This document shows positions 3,383 through 60,168 of a stretch of 64,000 bases of DNA, one piece after another (the stretch's first letter is position 1; each line of letters opens with the position of its first letter). The stretch covers positions 5,128-69,127 of the forward strand of contig JBDHUC010000007.1 in the NCBI GenBank assembly GCA_039808985.1. The letters run 5' to 3'. A program made the translations under genes and the position numbers. The notes beneath the pieces are model-generated. The model worked only from the letters and a program-made list of their open reading frames with translations, was not told where the DNA came from and did no database searches. This stretch comes from Alphaproteobacteria bacterium. Its GTDB lineage: Bacteria; Pseudomonadota; Alphaproteobacteria; Rickettsiales; SXRF01.

Positions 3383-4502
3383 TCAAAAAGATAACTCCCC
3401 CTTCCCCTTAACCCTGTCGGCCAGCGCGGCGCTTATGAACGCATCGAGATCGCCATCTAAAACACCCTGGCTGTTACTGGTTTCATGGTCAGTTCGCAGG
3501 TCTTTCACCAGTTGATAAGGATGCAGTACATATGAACGAATCTGGTGTCCCCAGGCGTTATCAGTTTTCTGGGCGTTAAGCACATCGGCTTTTTCTTCAC
3601 GGATTCGCAGTTCGCGCTCGTAAAGCCGGGCTTTAAGCATCTGCATCGCCTCGGCACGGTTGGCATGCTGGCTGCGCGAGCTTTGCGACTTAACAACAAT
3701 TCCGGTTGGCATATGGGTGAAACGCACCGCGCTTTCGGTCTTGTTTACATGCTGTCCACCGGCGCCGCCGGAGCGCATCGTGTCTACTTTAATATCCTTC
3801 TCATCAATTTTTATGTCGATCTTATCATCTATAACCGGATAAACCCAGACTCCGGCAAAGCTGGTGTGCCGCCTGGCATTAGAATCAAAAGGTGAAATGC
3901 GCACAAGACGGTGTACTCCGGATTCGGTCTTCGCCCAGCCATACGCATTATGCCCCATGATCTTTATGGTCGCGGATTTTATTCCTGCTTCTTCGCCACG
4001 GTTTTCGTCAATCAGCTCATATTTATAACCGCGCTTTGCCGCCCACCGCGTATACATACGCAGCAGCATTTCCGCCCAATCCTGTGATTCAGTTCCCCCG
4101 GCCCCTGAATTTATTTCAAGGAAACAATCATTGCTGTCGGCCTCGCCAGAAAGCAGGCTCTCTATTTCCAGCCTGTGCAATTCATCTGCTATTTTTTTCA
4201 GGGAGTTCTCAGCTTCTGCTAAAACAGCATCATCTTTTTCTGCTTCCGCCATTTCAGCAAGTTCAATATTTCCTTTGAATTCTGAGTCCAATCGCTCATA
4301 ACCACTGATTAATGAGTCAATATAGTTACGCTCACGCAATAATTCCTGAGCTTTTTCCGGCTTATTCCATAGATTTGGGTCTTCACAGAGCGAATTCAGC
4401 TCATCACGGCGGCGCAAAGCGTTATCCCAGTCAAAGATACCTCCTTAACAGTTCCTGTGACTGTTTGATTTGGCTGGATAATGTTTCAATTTCTGCTTTC
4501 AT
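3383..4502 (-). CDS. prfB: peptide chain release factor 2, expressed by programmed +1 frameshift
   Basis: SPF and GGQ motifs lie in the long ORF (3383-4417). A short frame-0 ORF, MKAEIETLSSQIKQSQELLRRYL-TGA, starts at 4502. The two join at CTT TGA C. Confidence 0.95.
4431..4445 (-). promoter_or_regulatory. RF2 autoregulatory +1 frameshift site (internal SD AGGAGG, then TAT CTT TGA C)
   Basis: The minus strand reads AGGAGG TAT CTT TGA CTG GGA. CTT is at 4436-4434 and TGA at 4433-4431. Shifting +1 gives L-D-W-D-N-A-L-RRRDELN, which continues the main ORF. Confidence 0.93.
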
Positions 4503-4592
4503 GATGCTGCGTAAAGAATAGCATTATTAATGATTTGTCAATAATTTAGAGTGTACAATGGAGAATGCCATATAATTAATACTAAAATCCAC

Positions 4593-7076
4593 ATGATAAA
4601 AGCTAAAAGAAATATAGAAAAACAGGGTTTTTCTCTTGTTCAGGTCAGCATAATAATAGCTGTTGCGGGTATTATCCTGTCCTCGGTCATTCCTGGAGGT
4701 GAATCAAACAGCGATATTGAAAAAAACCGCATTACACGCGAAAAGATGGAAAAAATAGAGCTGGCGACGCAGGGATTTATGGCCGCAAAGTTAAGGCGCC
4801 CCTGCCCGGCAGACGGTACCCTGGCAAATACTAACATAAATTTTGGCAAGGAAGATACAAATTATGGGAGCTGTTCCAGTGCTAATTTTTTTACACAGTC
4901 AACTCCTGTAACTAAAACTGGCGCTACTACAACAGCATCATCTGCAGTAGCAACAACATTAAACAACACTACAGGCCTTGCTATAGGAATGCTGGTAACT
5001 GGCACCAATATTGCCGCAAACACCCATATATTGAGTGTTGATAGCGCCACGCAGATTACATTTGATAAATACGCCGCCGGAGCCAGCGGAACATTAACAT
5101 TTACTACAGTGGCGGCTGGTGTTGTACCAACTAAAACGCTTGGCCTTCCTGATGATTATATGCTGGATGGATATGGCAGGCGCATAGGATATATGGTTGA
5201 TATTCGCGCAACTGATAAAACAACCTGCCGTAACATGCAGGCAAAAAAAACGTCGGGTGCAATTCAAATAATGGATTCATGGGCGAATATAGGTTCATAT
5301 AACACCGACAATGTAATGTGGGCGCTAATATCCTATGGAAAAAATGGGCATGGTGCCTTTCCGACTCAGGGCTCAAGCCTGGCCAACAGGTTCGATAGTG
5401 GCGCTACTAACAAAGATGAGCGTACCAATGCATTTATAGATGTTACTACCACTGATTTTACAACGGCATATACCCCGTATTTAGTAAGGCATGAACCCAA
5501 CCTTACTTCAGGAAACAACTATTTTGATGACACAATATGGACGCAGGAATCCACCAAAAACACCTGTTGCACAGGAAAGATGTGCAATATAGGCACAAGG
5601 ATTGATGGCTCAGCTTCAGAAAATTTTGGCTGGTCTGTTACCAGCGGAGATATAAATGGTGATGGCATCCCCGATATAATAGCTTCAAAGTCCGGGGGAA
5701 CTAAAATCAGGGTTATATTTGGTAAGGCAACAGGCTGGACACCAACTTCAGCCATATCTCTGGCAACAGCCAACAGTTCAAGATTTTTTACTATAACCAA
5801 TGATTCTGCGCATCCTAATTTTGCAGGAAGCATTGCGGTTGGCGATATTAATGGGGATGGTTATGACGATATTGTGATAGGTTATGGCGATGGAAGCGGT
5901 AGCTATATAAAAATATTCTATGGCAGCGCATCTCCAGTTGATACAAATACCAGTTCACTCACTGACATTATAACTTTTCCATCAACCACAACCAGTGGAG
6001 CGCCATCCATATCCCTTGGAAAATTCGCGCATACAGCAAGCAAAGATATTCTGGCTCTTATAAAGACGGCTTCCGGCACAGGAAGTTCAACCGCATATGT
6101 TATTTATGGCGCGGCATCTTACGGTTCAAAAACGGCTGATACTACAAACTGGCTATTGGCGGCCAGTACCGGTTTTAAAATCAACACCACCTCACCAGGA
6201 AGGCTGGAAGCAATATCGGCAGCAGGGGCTGGTGATGTTAATAATGACAGCTATGACGAAATTATATTCAGCAATTATACTAATAATATAATGTATGTTT
6301 TATTTGGCGAGTCGGCAGCAAACTGGGATACTGATAAAACTACAGCAGCAACCGGGGCAACTCCGGATATTGTGAATATTGACACGCGGGTTAGCGCCGG
6401 TGTTACAGAAGCTGTTAAATTCACTAATGGTTCCAGCAATATTGGTCGATATACTATTGCTGTAGCAGATATGAATAACGATGGCTACAATGACATTATA
6501 TTCAACAACGGTAATTATTTTTATATTTATTATGGCAAAACTGCAGCAAGCTGGACATCACCAGACCTTTCAACAGCAGCAAATTATAATGGCACCAATG
6601 GTTTCAGGGTTGATTTAGTCAGTAATATACCAGCCTGGGTAACTTCTCCCATGACCAGCGCCATTGTAAGCGATGTAAATGGCGATGGGAAAAAAGACAT
6701 TATATCAATTGATTCAAACGGAGGGCCAAACAGCCTGGCAAATTCCGGGGCAAGCTTCATAATATTGCAGCCAAGCGGTGGCTGGAGCAGCGCATGGACA
6801 AGTGGTACACTTACATTATTTGGCCAGGTATTTGACTCAGCAGGAACAGGCTTGCCATTAAACAATGATGTAAGCAAAGGTTTTAGGATAGATGGTGATG
6901 CTGCCAGCCAGAATGTAAATGTAGAAACAGTTGCTGACATCAATAATGATGGAAAAAATGATTTAATAATAGGTTCCGAACATGCATTCAGCGATGCAGG
7001 CAGTATTCATATATTATTTGGCCGCACATTAGTGCCATGGGATACATCAACCAATGTAAGCATATTAAATTATTAG
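4593..7076 (+). CDS. prepilin-type N-terminal domain protein fused to a 7-blade FG-GAP (integrin-alpha-like) beta-propeller
   Basis: Leader MIKAKRNIEKQG is followed by FSLVQVSIIIAVAGIILSSVI. There are six DxNxDGxxD calcium loops. The track ORF starts at a GTG at 4551, but the ATG at 4593 gives a typical short basic leader. Confidence 0.7.
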   Translation: MIKAKRNIEKQGFSLVQVSIIIAVAGIILSSVIPGGESNSDIEKNRITREKMEKIELATQGFMAAKLRRPCPADGTLANTNINFGKEDTNYGSCSSANFFTQSTPVTKTGATTTASSAVATTLNNTTGLAIGMLVTGTNIAANTHILSVDSATQITFDKYAAGASGTLTFTTVAAGVVPTKTLGLPDDYMLDGYGRRIGYMVDIRATDKTTCRNMQAKKTSGAIQIMDSWANIGSYNTDNVMWALISYGKNGHGAFPTQGSSLANRFDSGATNKDERTNAFIDVTTTDFTTAYTPYLVRHEPNLTSGNNYFDDTIWTQESTKNTCCTGKMCNIGTRIDGSASENFGWSVTSGDINGDGIPDIIASKSGGTKIRVIFGKATGWTPTSAISLATANSSRFFTITNDSAHPNFAGSIAVGDINGDGYDDIVIGYGDGSGSYIKIFYGSASPVDTNTSSLTDIITFPSTTTSGAPSISLGKFAHTASKDILALIKTASGTGSSTAYVIYGAASYGSKTADTTNWLLAASTGFKINTTSPGRLEAISAAGAGDVNNDSYDEIIFSNYTNNIMYVLFGESAANWDTDKTTAATGATPDIVNIDTRVSAGVTEAVKFTNGSSNIGRYTIAVADMNNDGYNDIIFNNGNYFYIYYGKTAASWTSPDLSTAANYNGTNGFRVDLVSNIPAWVTSPMTSAIVSDVNGDGKKDIISIDSNGGPNSLANSGASFIILQPSGGWSSAWTSGTLTLFGQVFDSAGTGLPLNNDVSKGFRIDGDAASQNVNVETVADINNDGKNDLIIGSEHAFSDAGSIHILFGRTLVPWDTSTNVSILNY

Positions 7077-7077
7077 C

Positions 7078-9699
7078 CTAATATAGTCCCCCTGTTCCAA
7101 CCATAGGCGGTTCAGAGCGCTCATTTATAACAGGCTCTTCTTCACCGCCGACAATATGGGGCGGGTTAGGATTGGCATCATCGGGGTTTATTATAACATC
7201 AGATTCCGAGTGTGAATTCGATCTGGTTTTTCCTGGTACAAAAACGGGTTCACCGATAACAAAGGCTTCGTCTATAATTTTCGCATCCGGCGGTTCAGTA
7301 CCATCCAATGGCAATCCGGTGTGCAAATCAACCTTTACCAACTGGATTCCACGCGGAATTTTAAATGGCTTGTTAGGTACATCAGCAAGCGCATCTTTCA
7401 TAAAAGAAATAAACGCTGGTAGCGCAACAGACGCGCCAGTTTCTCTTTTTCCAAGGGTTTTTGGTTTGTCATAGCCAATAAATACTCCTGCCACCAGATC
7501 AGGGGTAAAACCTACAAACCATGTGTCAAGGCTGTCATTAGTAGTTCCTGTTTTTCCTGCTACTGTTTTTCCGATTTCGCGCGCGCGCGCAGCCGTTCCC
7601 CTTGTTGCGACCCCCTGTAACATCGAGGTTATCTGGTATATAATACGAGGGTCAGCAACCTGCTCACGCAAGTCAGCCAGTTCGGGAGGCATAATATTAG
7701 GCCCTATTATGGACAGGTCGGATACTTTACATTCGCTGCAAACCCTGTCATCACGGCGGTAAATTGTTTTTCCATGCCGGTCGTCAATGCGTTCAATAAG
7801 CGATGGGGTAATTTTCTTGCCGCCGTTAGCTATCATCCCATAGGCATTGACTAGCCTCATTAATGTAGTTTCAGTCGCGCCAAGCACGATTGAAAAATTT
7901 GGCGCAGGGTCATCATAAATCCCAAACCTCTTGCCAATTTCAAGAACATTATCAAGTCCCATTGCCTGCGCAATACGCACTGTCATTGTATTACGCGATT
8001 TCTCAAGGCCAACCCGCATGGTAGTAGGCCCAAGGTAATCGCCATGATAATTAGATGGTTTCCATGCTGACATGCCTGCGCCTTGCGACATTTCAACCGG
8101 GGCATCTAAAAATACATCTGACGGAGTAAAGCCATTTTCAAGCCCAGCCATATATACAAATGGCTTAAATGACGAGCCGGGCTGGCGCTTAGCCTGGGTA
8201 GCGCGGTTAAATTCTGTTCCACCGTAAGTATATCCACCGGACATGGCCAGAACCCTGCCAGTATGTGGATCAAGCACTACCATAGCCCCATTAACTTCCG
8301 GGACCTGCCCCAGGCTCCATATTTTTTTCTGCTCATTCGAGTCGGCTGTTTTTTTATTATCAGATTTTTTCTTGCTGTTAGCGGATTTCTTCGGCTCTGT
8401 TATTTTTTCTTCTTCAGGGGTTAGTGGAGATAATATAACTACATCACCCACTTTAAGCACATCTGACGGACTTCTGACTTCCGGCCCGATTTTGCCATCA
8501 GCAATCACCCGGCGCGTCCATTTCATTAAAGAAAAAGGTATAATCCCAGATTTATCTTCGTCAAAAGCAACCTGTACTTTACTATCATCAATAGCCGATA
8601 CCACAGCCAGTTTCTGCCCATCAAGAAGATGGTAGGCGTTTTCTTTTAAAAGAACCGCCAGATTATTCTTCCATTCCTTCATGTTTGCAATATGCGTTAC
8701 CGGGCCTCGATACCCTCTGCGGCGGTCATATTCGATTAAAGCTTTTTGCAAGGCATTATCGGCTTCCTTCTGTAAATCTGGATTAACTGTAGTTTTCACC
8801 ACAAGGCCACCACCATAAAGAACATCGGAACCATACATATCTGATAAAGTACGCCGTACTTCCTCAGCAAAAAAATCAGCGCGCGCCGTATCTGTTACAT
8901 CGCGGTTTCTCAGGTTTATTGGTGTATCCTGGGCTATTTTTGCCTCCGCCGCAGTGATATAACCGTCTTCATTCATGCGGTCTATAACCCAGTCGCGCCG
9001 CCTCTTTGCAGCGTCATAATTTTTTTTCGGGTTATAGTCAGCAGGGGCTTTAGGCTCAGATGCTAAAAGCGCCACTTCTTCAACCGTAAGCTCATCCAGT
9101 GATTTATTAAAATAATTCTGGGCTGCGGCTGCAACCCCGTACGAGCCCATGCCAAGGTAAATCTCGTTAAGATACAGTTCCAGGATTTTATCCTTGCTGT
9201 AAACCCGGCTGATGCGCATTGCAAGTATCGCCTCTTTTATTTTGCGCTCGATAGACTTTTCATTGGTCAACAAAAAATTCTTAACAACCTGCTGGGTAAT
9301 GGTAGAGCCGCCAACCAGCGACTTTCCCTGGCCATAATTTTTTATATTGTTAAATACCGCGCGTCCTAAACCAGTAAAATCTATACCTGTGTGGCTATAA
9401 AAATTTTTATCCTCAGCCGAAAGGAAAGCATGTATTACAGATTTAGGGATAGCAGAAAGCGGTACAAACACACGTTTTTCCGTTGAATATTCAGCAAGCA
9501 GCTTTCCATTTGCTGCGTACAGGCGCGTTAAAGTTGCCGGGTCATATTTTTCGAGCTGGCTGTAGTCCGGCAGATCCTTGTCGTAATAAGTGAACATTAT
9601 TGCGCCTATTACCAGGCCAACAATAGACAAGGTAAATCCTATGGAAAAAAACCAACCCAAAAGGGCGATAAGCCCGCGCGAGAATCTACTCTTTAACAT
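7078..9699 (-). CDS. mrcA: penicillin-binding protein 1A (bifunctional transglycosylase/transpeptidase)
   Basis: N-terminal TM anchor, GT51 motifs EDKNFYSHTGID and RKIKEA, transpeptidase motif SSFKP, and KTGTT near the C-terminus. Confidence 0.93.
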   Translation of the reverse strand: MLKSRFSRGLIALLGWFFSIGFTLSIVGLVIGAIMFTYYDKDLPDYSQLEKYDPATLTRLYAANGKLLAEYSTEKRVFVPLSAIPKSVIHAFLSAEDKNFYSHTGIDFTGLGRAVFNNIKNYGQGKSLVGGSTITQQVVKNFLLTNEKSIERKIKEAILAMRISRVYSKDKILELYLNEIYLGMGSYGVAAAAQNYFNKSLDELTVEEVALLASEPKAPADYNPKKNYDAAKRRRDWVIDRMNEDGYITAAEAKIAQDTPINLRNRDVTDTARADFFAEEVRRTLSDMYGSDVLYGGGLVVKTTVNPDLQKEADNALQKALIEYDRRRGYRGPVTHIANMKEWKNNLAVLLKENAYHLLDGQKLAVVSAIDDSKVQVAFDEDKSGIIPFSLMKWTRRVIADGKIGPEVRSPSDVLKVGDVVILSPLTPEEEKITEPKKSANSKKKSDNKKTADSNEQKKIWSLGQVPEVNGAMVVLDPHTGRVLAMSGGYTYGGTEFNRATQAKRQPGSSFKPFVYMAGLENGFTPSDVFLDAPVEMSQGAGMSAWKPSNYHGDYLGPTTMRVGLEKSRNTMTVRIAQAMGLDNVLEIGKRFGIYDDPAPNFSIVLGATETTLMRLVNAYGMIANGGKKITPSLIERIDDRHGKTIYRRDDRVCSECKVSDLSIIGPNIMPPELADLREQVADPRIIYQITSMLQGVATRGTAARAREIGKTVAGKTGTTNDSLDTWFVGFTPDLVAGVFIGYDKPKTLGKRETGASVALPAFISFMKDALADVPNKPFKIPRGIQLVKVDLHTGLPLDGTEPPDAKIIDEAFVIGEPVFVPGKTRSNSHSESDVIINPDDANPNPPHIVGGEEEPVINERSEPPMVGTGGLY

Positions 9700-58715: not shown

Positions 58716-60148
58716 TTTATCCTTTTTTTTGCTTCTGCGACTGCTTTTTTAACATTCTCCGGCGAGGTTCCACCATAGCTTACACGGCTTTTTACAGAAT
58801 TTTCAACCCCAAGGACCTTATATACATCCTGCTTTATTTTAGATTCCACATTTTGCATTTCCTTAAGCGTCAGCTCTTCAAGGCCTTTCTTTTTATCGCT
58901 TGCTATTTTTACAAGCTTTGCTGTTATGTGGTGTGCATCGCGGAATGGTATTTTAAGCTCGCGCACCAGGTAATCGGCAAGGTCGGTAGCGGTTGAGTAA
59001 CCAGCCCCGGCTGCGGCCTTCATTTTCTCCTTATCAACTTTCAGGTCGCCAACCATGCCAGCCATCGCCTGCAGGCAAATCCCTATATTCTCTGCTGTAT
59101 CAAATACATTTTCCTTATCCTCTTGCATGTCCTTGTTATAGGCCAGCGGCAACGCCTTCATAGTGGTAAGCAATGCGATCAAATTACCAAATATCCGTCC
59201 TGATTTTCCGCGCACAAGTTCAGCGGCATCAGGGTTACGTTTTTGCGGCATTATGGAGCTTCCGGTTGAATAGGAATCGGAGAATCTTATAAATGAGAAT
59301 TGCGCGCTGGACCAATTAACCATTTCTTCTGCGAGGCGCGACAGGTGAACCGCGCATATTGCGCAAACCGACAAATAATCCAGTGCAAAATCACGATCAG
59401 AAACTGCATCAAGGGAGTTTGCCATTGGCCTTTCAAAACCAAGTGCCTTAGCAGTTGCAAAACGGTCAACAGGAAATGATGTCCCGGCAAGCGCGGCGGC
59501 GCCAAGAGGCGATTCATTCATGCGTTTACGCGCACCTAGGGCACGGCTGCGGTCACGTGAGAACATTTCAACATAAGCAAGAAGGTGGTGACCAAAAGTA
59601 ACCGGCTGCGCTGCCTGCAAATGTGTAAACCCCGGCATTATGGTAGCGGCATGCTCCCCTGCCCTGTCAATAAGCGCTGACTGTAAATTTTTAAGCAGGC
59701 CATCAAGGGCATCGAAAGCATCACGCACATAAAGGCGGAAATCAGTTGCCACCTGGTCATTGCGGGAGCGGGCAGTGTGCAATCTTCCTGCCTGCTCGCC
59801 AATACGTTCTTTAAGGGCCGCCTCTACGTTCATATGTATATCTTCAAGGCTATCTTTGAATTGGAACTTTCCGCCTTGAATATCGCGTAGAATATCTTTA
59901 AGTCCTGAAATTATTGATTTTGCATCGGCAGCCGTTATGATTTTTTGCTTTGCCAGCATATCAGCATGTGCAATAGAGCCTTCAATATCCTGCTTATAAA
60001 GCTTCTTGTCAAAACTTATAGATGCGTTAATCTTGTTCATAAGTTCGGATGGCGAACTGGTGAATTGTCCGCCCCACATCTGGTTAGCCTGCGCTTTGCC
60101 GGATTTTGTTCCTGTTACTTTATTTTTTGGCATTTTATAAAATTTCAA
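58712..60148 (-). CDS. argH: argininosuccinate lyase
   Basis: MWGGQF and the fumarate-lyase signature [12 protein letters not shown]. The start could also be 60133. Confidence 0.95.
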
Positions 60149-60168
60149 CCCTGAGCAAATATAAATTT

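Follow-up and report, generated by a model that had tools for sequence, protein, structure and literature searches.

The locus and its gene

The stretch of DNA analysed here, referred to as the window, comprises 64,000 nucleotides of contig JBDHUC010000007.1 (GenBank assembly GCA_039808985.1) from an alphaproteobacterium placed among the Rickettsiales. Between the genes prfB and mrcA it carries one open reading frame (ORF) on the + strand, with its stop at 7076, whose product combines a pilin-like N-terminal part with a large C-terminal FG-GAP beta-propeller. This report addresses the structure, the family and the possible function of that product. Two starts are possible, GTG 4551 and ATG 4593. 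The ATG is backed by the N-termini of homologues and by the public gene call, and gives a product of 827 amino acids (aa). GTG 4551 was dropped, since the homologues all begin 10-14 residues ahead of the Gly-Phe site described below.

The class III signal

The protein begins with the leader MIKAKRNIEKQG and continues with FSLVQVSIIIAVAGIILSSVIPGG. The class III leader peptide (aa 1-12; 4593-4628, +), delimited from the translation and the alignment of homologues, is short and net basic and ends in Gly at position -1. It is followed directly by a hydrophobic helix of 21 residues, giving the layout MIKAKRNIEKQG then FSLVQVSIIIAVAGIILSSVI. The hydrophobic stretch forms the first half of the pilin alpha-1 helix (aa 13-66; 4629-4790, +), for which AlphaFold predicts helices at aa 15-32 and 41-66, and a break, PGGESNSD, precedes the amphipathic half at aa 41-66. 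In mature numbering, the helix carries Gln at +5; its codon, CAG at 4641-4643, is codon 17 of the gene and comes fifth behind Gly12. Gly lies at +14 and Pro at +22, positions typical of type IVa pilins and GspG.

The site is a family feature. The pattern G-F-[STN]-L-[IVL]-x is present at the cleavage site in 99 of 120 homologues, and where no site is recognisable, the gene call mostly starts too late, at an internal Met. G12 and L15 are conserved at a level of at least 90%, and G12, F13 and L15 are invariant in the A2 alignment. Gly(-1), Phe(+1) and Leu(+3) are retained in homologues as distant as 25% identity, while +5 is variable. This conservation of the cleavage-site residues, together with that of the short basic leader throughout the family, counts against a plain membrane anchor, which needs none of them.

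Kinship with type IV pilins was established through profile comparison. A family profile of aa 1-345, compared with the PDB, matches exclusively type IV pilins and GspG, with E values of 2.7e-5 for geopilin, 2.8e-5 for S. sanguinis PilE1, 5e-5 for PilA and 3.9e-4 for GspG, and in several of these alignments the F13 position falls on mature residue 1. The GspG model TIGR01710 is matched by 13 of 22 family N-domains (best E 1.8e-9), and the N_methyl and TIGR02532 models by four of the 22, all of them relatives with Glu at +5. As judged from sequence, the window protein is pilin-like by descent, with a residue other than the Glu expected at +5. A sequence-only reading of this DNA had described a class III (prepilin) signal layout and Gln in place of Glu; both stand, the layout being carried by the sequence, by family conservation and by the in-register match to pilins, and the Gln by its CAG codon.

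The pilin-type domain and its beta insertion

The pilin-type globular domain is about 330 aa long and is interrupted by an insertion. Its first part (aa 67-105; 4791-4907, +) bears the signature RRPCPADG...NFG.E...G.C, with Cys71 and Cys94; in the family alignments P70, C71 and P72 are invariant, and A73, G85, G92 and C94 are conserved at a level of at least 90%. A Thr/Ala-rich beta-barrel insertion of 72 residues follows (aa 106-177; 4908-5123, +), which AlphaFold models as strands over aa 106-177 with a predicted local distance difference test (pLDDT) score of 84-92. The core of the domain (aa 178-340; 5124-5612, +) lies behind the insertion and holds the majority of the invariant columns and the best-conserved motifs, namely GVVPTKTLGLPDDY..DGYGRR..Y.VD, VMWALISYGKNGHGAF, FDD..W and KNTCCTGKMC (Cys212, 325, 326 and 331).

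The Thr/Ala-rich segment had been read as a linker between the pilin and the propeller. It is instead a confidently folded beta domain within the pilin-type domain, and it is missing in about half of the family. Foldseek with the isolated N-domain model returned weak matches only, to small beta-barrels at an E value of 0.02. The same insertion is present in the Glu+5 pilin of locus L094, discussed below, which suggests that it travels with the pilin domain and not with the propeller. The mature part contains six Cys, several of them conserved, which is in keeping with export and disulfide bonding of this domain. Four thioredoxin-fold genes (DsbA-like or redoxin-type) lie in the window, at 15365-16159, 25715-26440, 33802-34419 and 60106-60705; if periplasmic, their products would suit a cell that exports many proteins with disulfide bonds, the six-Cys pilin-like protein among them.

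The FG-GAP propeller

The remainder of the protein (aa 341-827; 5613-7073, +, with the stop codon at 7074-7076) is a seven-blade FG-GAP beta-propeller according to Pfam, AlphaFold and Foldseek. Pfam matches FG-GAP at an E value of 2.6e-31 across six stretches and FG-GAP_3 at 2e-15. The full-length AlphaFold model has a pLDDT of 88.6 and a predicted template modelling (pTM) score of 0.87, and the propeller is mostly above 85 in pLDDT. The best PDB matches in Foldseek are the propellers of ITFG2, integrin alpha and BBS proteins (E 7e-9 to 1e-6, TM(target) 0.5-0.67). The number of seven blades is taken from the seven loop positions, six intact and one degenerate, and from the strand groups in the model.

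Six loops follow the calcium-type pattern D-x-[DN]-x-D-[GS]-x-x-[DE] and are predicted from sequence to bind calcium. All are on the + strand and were placed by motif position, and loops 2, 6 and 7 also by the family alignment. Loop 1, DINGDGIPD (aa 353-361; 5649-5675), has D353, N355, G356, D357, G358 and D361 conserved at a level of at least 90%. Loop 2 is DINGDGYDD (aa 418-426; 5844-5870), loop 4 DVNNDSYDE (aa 548-556; 6234-6260) and loop 5 DMNNDGYND (aa 626-634; 6468-6494), with D634 invariant. Loops 6, DVNGDGKKD (aa 694-702; 6672-6698), and 7, DINNDGKND (aa 782-790; 6936-6962), complete the set. The loop of blade 3 (aa 478-490, ...HTASKDILAL; 6024-6062) is degenerate and retains D485 alone; the family consensus at this blade is a full loop, A.GD..GDG..DI, so that the motif has been lost in the window protein. 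The propeller of integrin-alpha/FG-GAP type that had been proposed, with six calcium loops and one degenerate blade, is thus borne out by Pfam and Foldseek. Of the hidden Markov model searches that had been suggested, the one for FG-GAP succeeded, and the N_methyl model remained unmatched by the window protein itself.

A large family with a variable residue at +5

More than 250 full-length homologues were found, from 76% down to 25% identity, mostly in metagenome-assembled genomes (MAGs) labelled Rickettsiales, Alphaproteobacteria or Pseudomonadota. Several relatives are annotated as 'PulG pseudopilin' (JGI), and the close ones as 'hypothetical protein' or 'FG-GAP repeat protein' (NCBI). Searched against 1.84 billion representatives, a profile of the pilin domain (first 345 aa) gathers 2,374 clusters at E<=1e-30, which range in length from 236 to 1602 aa. 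They include stand-alone pilins and fusions to an FG-GAP propeller, a WD40-like propeller, a LamG-like or another C-terminal domain, and with so many partners the pilin domain looks like a general carrier module. A profile scan of genome contigs, made with the full-length alignment, was dominated by generic FG-GAP propellers, and its true pilin-domain relatives are loci L015 and L025 only. L015 (4909-10793, Alphaproteobacteria MAG VGDC01000019.1) encodes three tandem Glu+5 pilins with a common pilin domain and differing C-termini: one of 940 aa with a weak LamG-like end, one of 752 aa with a WD40-like propeller and one of 266 aa that is essentially the pilin domain alone.

Among the 99 homologues with a recognisable site, the residue at +5 is Gln in 70 and Glu in eight, the rest having Ala, Thr, Trp, Met or another residue. 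In a neighbour-joining tree, the Glu+5 members form one clade, and the remaining resolved members have Gln, save for one subclade with Ala, Thr or Val. The distribution would fit a single loss of Glu, after which Gln was retained.

Members with and without Glu may stand together. At L094, a non-Glu (Ala+5) FG-GAP member and a Glu+5 pilin of the same family share one same-strand cluster, a pairing that resembles a cap plus the subunit beneath it. The cluster (5526-12580 of ERZ25039592 contig_5691) opens with a small membrane protein, the Glu+5 pilin (343 aa) and an FG-GAP ORF that has no signal peptide and may have been separated from the pilin by a frameshift; it continues with a second small membrane protein, which looks paralogous to the first, and the distant Ala+5 FG-GAP pilin. 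It is flanked by IS66, ParB, a TraG/TrwB coupling protein and a DUF8437/SNF2 helicase. Another Glu+5 member, P0081, adjoins a DUF8437 helicase, a TrwC relaxase, RepA_C and ParA. Some clades of the family thus appear to be carried by conjugative elements.

Prepilin peptidase and assembly machinery in relatives

In an uncultured Rickettsiales MAG (L025, 9180-11840), a prepilin peptidase gene lies divergent from two tandem Glu+5 pilins of the family. The enzyme matches A24_N_bact (4e-29) and Peptidase_A24 (3e-19), both above cut-off, and the pilins share 34% identity with the window protein over its aa 8-315. At L088 (7063-10765), a peptidase gene is likewise divergent from two Glu+5 pilins of the family, each with an extra C-terminal domain that is read as LamG-like. 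No genes for an assembly ATPase, platform or secretin lie within 10 kb at either locus. A chaperone-usher cluster (SCPU-Usher-PapD-SCPU) is found 1.5 kb downstream at L088.

Peptidases related to the L025 enzyme are numerous in MAGs labelled Alphaproteobacteria or Rickettsiales. One MAG is particularly informative. P0243 (MFW0777089.1, GCA_048537145.1) is a Gln+5 FG-GAP orthologue of 33% identity in a Rickettsiales MAG, in the same place between prfB and mrcA, and P0245 (MFW0777960.1) is a 'prepilin peptidase [Rickettsiales bacterium]'. The two are assigned to one MAG because their accessions are 871 apart and both exact sequences occur in run SRR22731810. An ATPase gene of MshEN+T2SSE (PilB/GspE) type lies 8.5 kb from the peptidase gene. 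There is therefore at least one genome in which a syntenic orthologue with Gln+5 coexists with both a peptidase and an assembly ATPase, and a genome lacking these, which had been named as grounds for giving up the tip pilin idea, is not what this relative shows. In the same MAG, locus L090 (9450-20771) presents a gene for the lysozyme inhibitor Ivy, then pilD, then an assimilatory sulfate-reduction cluster, with the MshEN+T2SSE ATPase gene running beyond the locus end. The pair P0314 and P0019 was also tried as a co-occurring peptidase and FG-GAP pilin and rejected as coincidence: the 7,085-bp contig reads lptD-surA-pilD and has no FG-GAP gene. P0243 and P0245 remain the one solid case of co-occurrence.

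The relatives of the window also show genes for methyl-accepting chemotaxis and Che proteins, rvh-type VirB8/VirB9 and sulfate assimilation. Basal Rickettsiales have type IV pili, flagella and chemotaxis, and pilus-mediated host attachment has been proposed for them (Schön et al., PMC9352585). The genes seen in the relatives fit such basal, flagellated Rickettsiales-type lineages.

Genomic neighbourhood

The gene is solitary, as had been noted from the letters alone. Neither Pfam scans nor the visible gene calls reveal a pil, gsp or tad gene or an A24 peptidase in the 64 kb, and a motif scan of the window finds no second class III N-terminus. Upstream, the divergent neighbour prfB (release factor 2, RF2; 3383-4502, -) begins with ATG at 4502-4500 and contains a programmed +1 frameshift site (4430-4502, -: ...AGG AGG TAT CTT TGA C, where the TGA at 4433-4431 is in frame). 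As a result of this frameshift, the program-made list of ORFs starts RF2 too late, at 4417; with the correct start, about 90 bp separate prfB from the pilin-like gene. Downstream, 1 bp beyond the stop codon, the gene calls place the convergent mrcA, for a class A penicillin-binding protein (PBP; 7078-9699, -), followed by amiC and rne.

The arrangement prfB-X-mrcA, in which X is the pilin-like gene, is also found at L004, L087, L089 and L091, with orthologues of 71% to 33% identity. At these loci, as in the window, the gene stops 1-5 bp short of the mrcA end or runs a few bases into it. At L003 (55% identity), nadA lies downstream instead of mrcA, and the Glu+5 and Ala+5 members have unrelated or mobile-element surroundings. 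The block prfB-mrcA-amiC-rne is probably stable in alphaproteobacteria even without the pilin-like gene. The adjacency to mrcA is best explained as an old insertion into a stable gene block, since the genes are convergent and the adjacency is broken at L003.

A promoter scan of 4350-7250 gave 9-of-12 consensus matches at best, with promoter-like sites at the shuffled expectation. Terminator-like sites in the same interval are commoner than expected, all of them within the ORF on the opposite strand, and nothing is concluded from either kind of site. Elsewhere, the window holds MotB and, at 29734-31614 (+), a family-2 glycosyltransferase with an N-terminal MshEN domain, presumably a c-di-GMP-binding module, preceded by a 289-aa ORF with no Pfam match; the glycosyltransferase may be a regulated exopolysaccharide synthase. 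In the public contig upstream of the window start (L001, 1-4515), genes for a phage capsid, an S78 protease and a portal adjoin a carbonic anhydrase gene. This group is conserved beside the carbonic anhydrase gene in relatives, including L003 and L089, and looks like a gene-transfer-agent-type cluster.

Proposed function and alternatives

Type IV filaments are built from tip to base, with the Glu5 of each subunit paired to the N-terminal amine of its upper neighbour (PMC10191384, PMC12918778). The capping subunit of tip complexes lacks Glu5 according to the same papers, in agreement with the background on which the sequence-only reading relied. Within this framework, the precursor would be inserted in the inner membrane with its bulk in the periplasm. 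A PilD/GspO-type prepilin peptidase, encoded elsewhere in the genome, would cut after Gly12 and remove the 12-residue leader, and the mature protein would become the first, apical subunit of a type IV filament, either a type IV pilus or a pseudopilus like that of type II secretion. With growth from tip to base, the topmost subunit would need no Glu+5, and the conserved Gln would fit that position. This would place the propeller at the tip of the filament, where it would bind in a calcium-dependent manner and plausibly mediate attachment to a surface, a host or prey. The conserved cleavage site, the conserved non-acidic +5 residue and the bulky binding module together fit a PilD-processed cap that has no need for Glu5. 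From these features we infer cleavage, incorporation into a filament, the tip position, calcium binding and adhesion. On balance, we give an even chance to the reading of the product as a modular type IV pilin-like protein, made of a class III signal, a pilin-type domain and an FG-GAP propeller, that acts as an apical tip pilin-adhesin.

Several observations weigh against it. The window protein has no match to N_methyl (PF07963) or TIGR02532, and its match to the GspG model (E 0.021-0.087 on aa 11-75) is far below cut-off. Foldseek finds no pilin with the N-domain AlphaFold model (pLDDT 81.8), and nothing at E<=0.001, in a search whose query is multi-domain with an inserted barrel that may mask a pilin match; a pilin fold of the globular part is putative. 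The 64 kb are free of pilus, secretin and peptidase genes, and so is the DNA within 10 kb of every close orthologue. Gln is strictly kept at +5 in the clade of the window, in contrast to GspK-type cap pilins, which have assorted hydrophobic residues there. Short family members without FG-GAP loops, some of which may be truncated by contig ends, also have residues other than Glu at +5 (Gln, Trp, Phe, Ala, Thr and others). It may be, therefore, that the whole family has quit filament assembly, and not merely that caps have lost Glu.

The last point leads to the main alternative, that of a non-assembled pilin derivative, whose N-terminus, processed by PilD or not, would tether both the pilin-like domain and the propeller to the inner membrane, on its periplasmic side, with the propeller binding a periplasmic or envelope ligand. 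Under this alternative, the loss of the Glu+5 needed for docking into a filament, over most of the family and in its short members, is readily understood, as are the invariably solitary gene in the clade of the window and the globular domain without a pilin match in Foldseek; Gln would also be friendlier than Glu within the bilayer. If it were true, the pilin module would have been recycled as a PilD-processed anchor. The family-wide retention of the cleavage-site residues and leader speaks against it, as do the prepilin peptidase genes that adjoin family members and the propeller itself, since calcium-loop FG-GAP propellers are usually extracellular binding modules. We regard it as possible but rather unlikely, and the tip pilin-adhesin remains the preferred reading.

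The tight adjacency to mrcA (PBP1A), kept in the window, L004, L087/L091 and L089 over the range of 71% to 33% identity, raises the thought of a cell-wall factor linked to mrcA or amiC, for example a membrane-anchored periplasmic regulator of peptidoglycan synthesis. Weak motif-level matches to PliI and XAC2610, two inhibitors of peptidoglycan hydrolases whose loops resemble those of FG-GAP, point the same way, but they span one 25-residue calcium loop only. The convergent orientation means that the gene is not co-transcribed with mrcA, and the nadA neighbour at L003, the unrelated or mobile-element contexts of the Glu+5 and Ala+5 members and the probable stability of the prfB-mrcA-amiC-rne block where the gene is absent make an old insertion the better explanation of the adjacency and a cell-wall role highly improbable. 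Least probable of all is an ordinary Sec-secreted or lipid-free periplasmic FG-GAP protein with a prepilin-like N-terminus by chance, as the NCBI labels 'hypothetical protein' and 'FG-GAP repeat protein' and the failed N_methyl match might suggest, because the 21-residue hydrophobic stretch is followed by no visible signal-peptidase site of Ala-x-Ala type, the profile likeness to pilins is significant and in register, and the family has canonical G/FTL[LV]E members that match N_methyl and stand beside PilD genes.

Novelty and significance

What is new is threefold: a Glu5-less (Gln) clade that motif models do not see, a distinct and very large carrier-domain family, and single-copy syntenic inheritance in Rickettsiales-like bacteria. 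A further proposal is doubtful enough to be put forward only tentatively. It holds that two tip functions divided between separate proteins in classical type IVa pili, the Glu5-less cap (the role of PilK/GspK) and the calcium-propeller adhesin (the role of PilY1), are joined in a single polypeptide, which is vertically inherited between prfB and mrcA through Rickettsiales-like lineages with flagella, chemotaxis and type IV pili. If this joined cap and adhesin were real, it would be a candidate attachment device of early Rickettsiales for host contact, and the family of about 2,400 clusters would be a general, unannotated carrier for tip modules (FG-GAP, WD40-like, LamG-like).

The tip pilin-adhesin would matter in other ways as well. 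Motif-based surveys would be missing a large pilin-like clade, since Glu+5 is replaced and N_methyl fails. A self-capping pilin-adhesin fusion would be a simple and testable system that bears on what a cap requires and on the role of the conserved Gln at +5. It would also give pilus-mediated attachment in basal Rickettsiales, free-living or epibiotic, a concrete candidate protein; for these bacteria, host contact via pili has been proposed (PMC9352585).

Comparison with known systems

The propellers of integrin alpha, ITFG2 and bacterial FG-GAP (VCBS-type) proteins likewise have seven blades with D-x-D-x-D-G calcium loops but, unlike the window protein, no pilin N-terminus. The literature search returned no paper in the library that links FG-GAP with pilins, and combinations of FG-GAP with other pilus terms gave nothing relevant among the papers listed.

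Known tip components offer closer parallels in function. GspK and PilK (PilX) also lack the Glu at +5 and are thought to cap an assembly-priming tip complex (PMC10191384, PMC12918778), and GspK is enlarged by an extra domain, as is the window protein. The window protein differs in having no match to the T2SSK/GspK models of Pfam and NCBIfam, no GspI/J-type partners encoded beside it, a conserved Gln at +5 and, as its extra module, a C-terminal propeller and not an alpha-domain insertion. PilY1 and PilC also bring a large propeller with calcium-dependent function to the pilus tip, according to passages in PMC8179133 and PMC8833165. They are, however, non-pilin proteins held through beta-strand complementation with PilK, whereas the window propeller is of FG-GAP/integrin-alpha type and covalently fused; Pfam finds no PilY1-type propeller (IPR008707) in it, and no PilY1 or PilC chain is among the 50 best Foldseek matches.

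CpaL and TadG of Tad pili are also single chains, of about 600 aa, with an N-terminal minor-pilin-like domain and a large further region, and they are located at the tip and required for assembly (PMC12918778). They belong to another filament class (Tad), with another signal type and other extra domains, and no sequence relationship to the window protein is seen. CofB and TcpB of type IVb pili are encoded in a pilus operon, whereas the window gene is solitary. Both keep Glu at +5 and form homotrimers. Like the window protein, they consist of a pilin domain with C-terminal beta-rich binding domains, and they are tip-located and assembly-initiating (PMC8179133; PMC5207764).

The nearest known group is that of the modular pilins, which are widespread, with 264 architectures, and likely tip-exposed (Raynaud et al. 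2021, PMC8179133). The combination IPR012902-IPR013517 (N_methyl and FG-GAP) already figures in Dataset S1 of that paper, so that the fusion of pilin and adhesin, which the sequence-only reading had implied to be exceptional, belongs to a common type. Of that reading, the pilin-type N-terminus stands by profile homology, and the unusual character of the fusion does not. Compared with the listed modular pilins, the window protein lacks Glu+5 and is unseen by the N_methyl model, and is therefore missed in such surveys; its pilin module of about 330 aa belongs to a distinct family with an inserted beta-barrel, and its gene is solitary and not part of a pil locus. The plan is nevertheless the same as in S. 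sanguinis PilB, with its vWA domain, and PilC, with its lectin domain, in which a non-pilus binding domain is grafted onto an N-terminal pilin module (PMC8179133). A modular pilin is recognised by a pilin module joined to a domain that is not specific to pilus biology, and the window protein has both.

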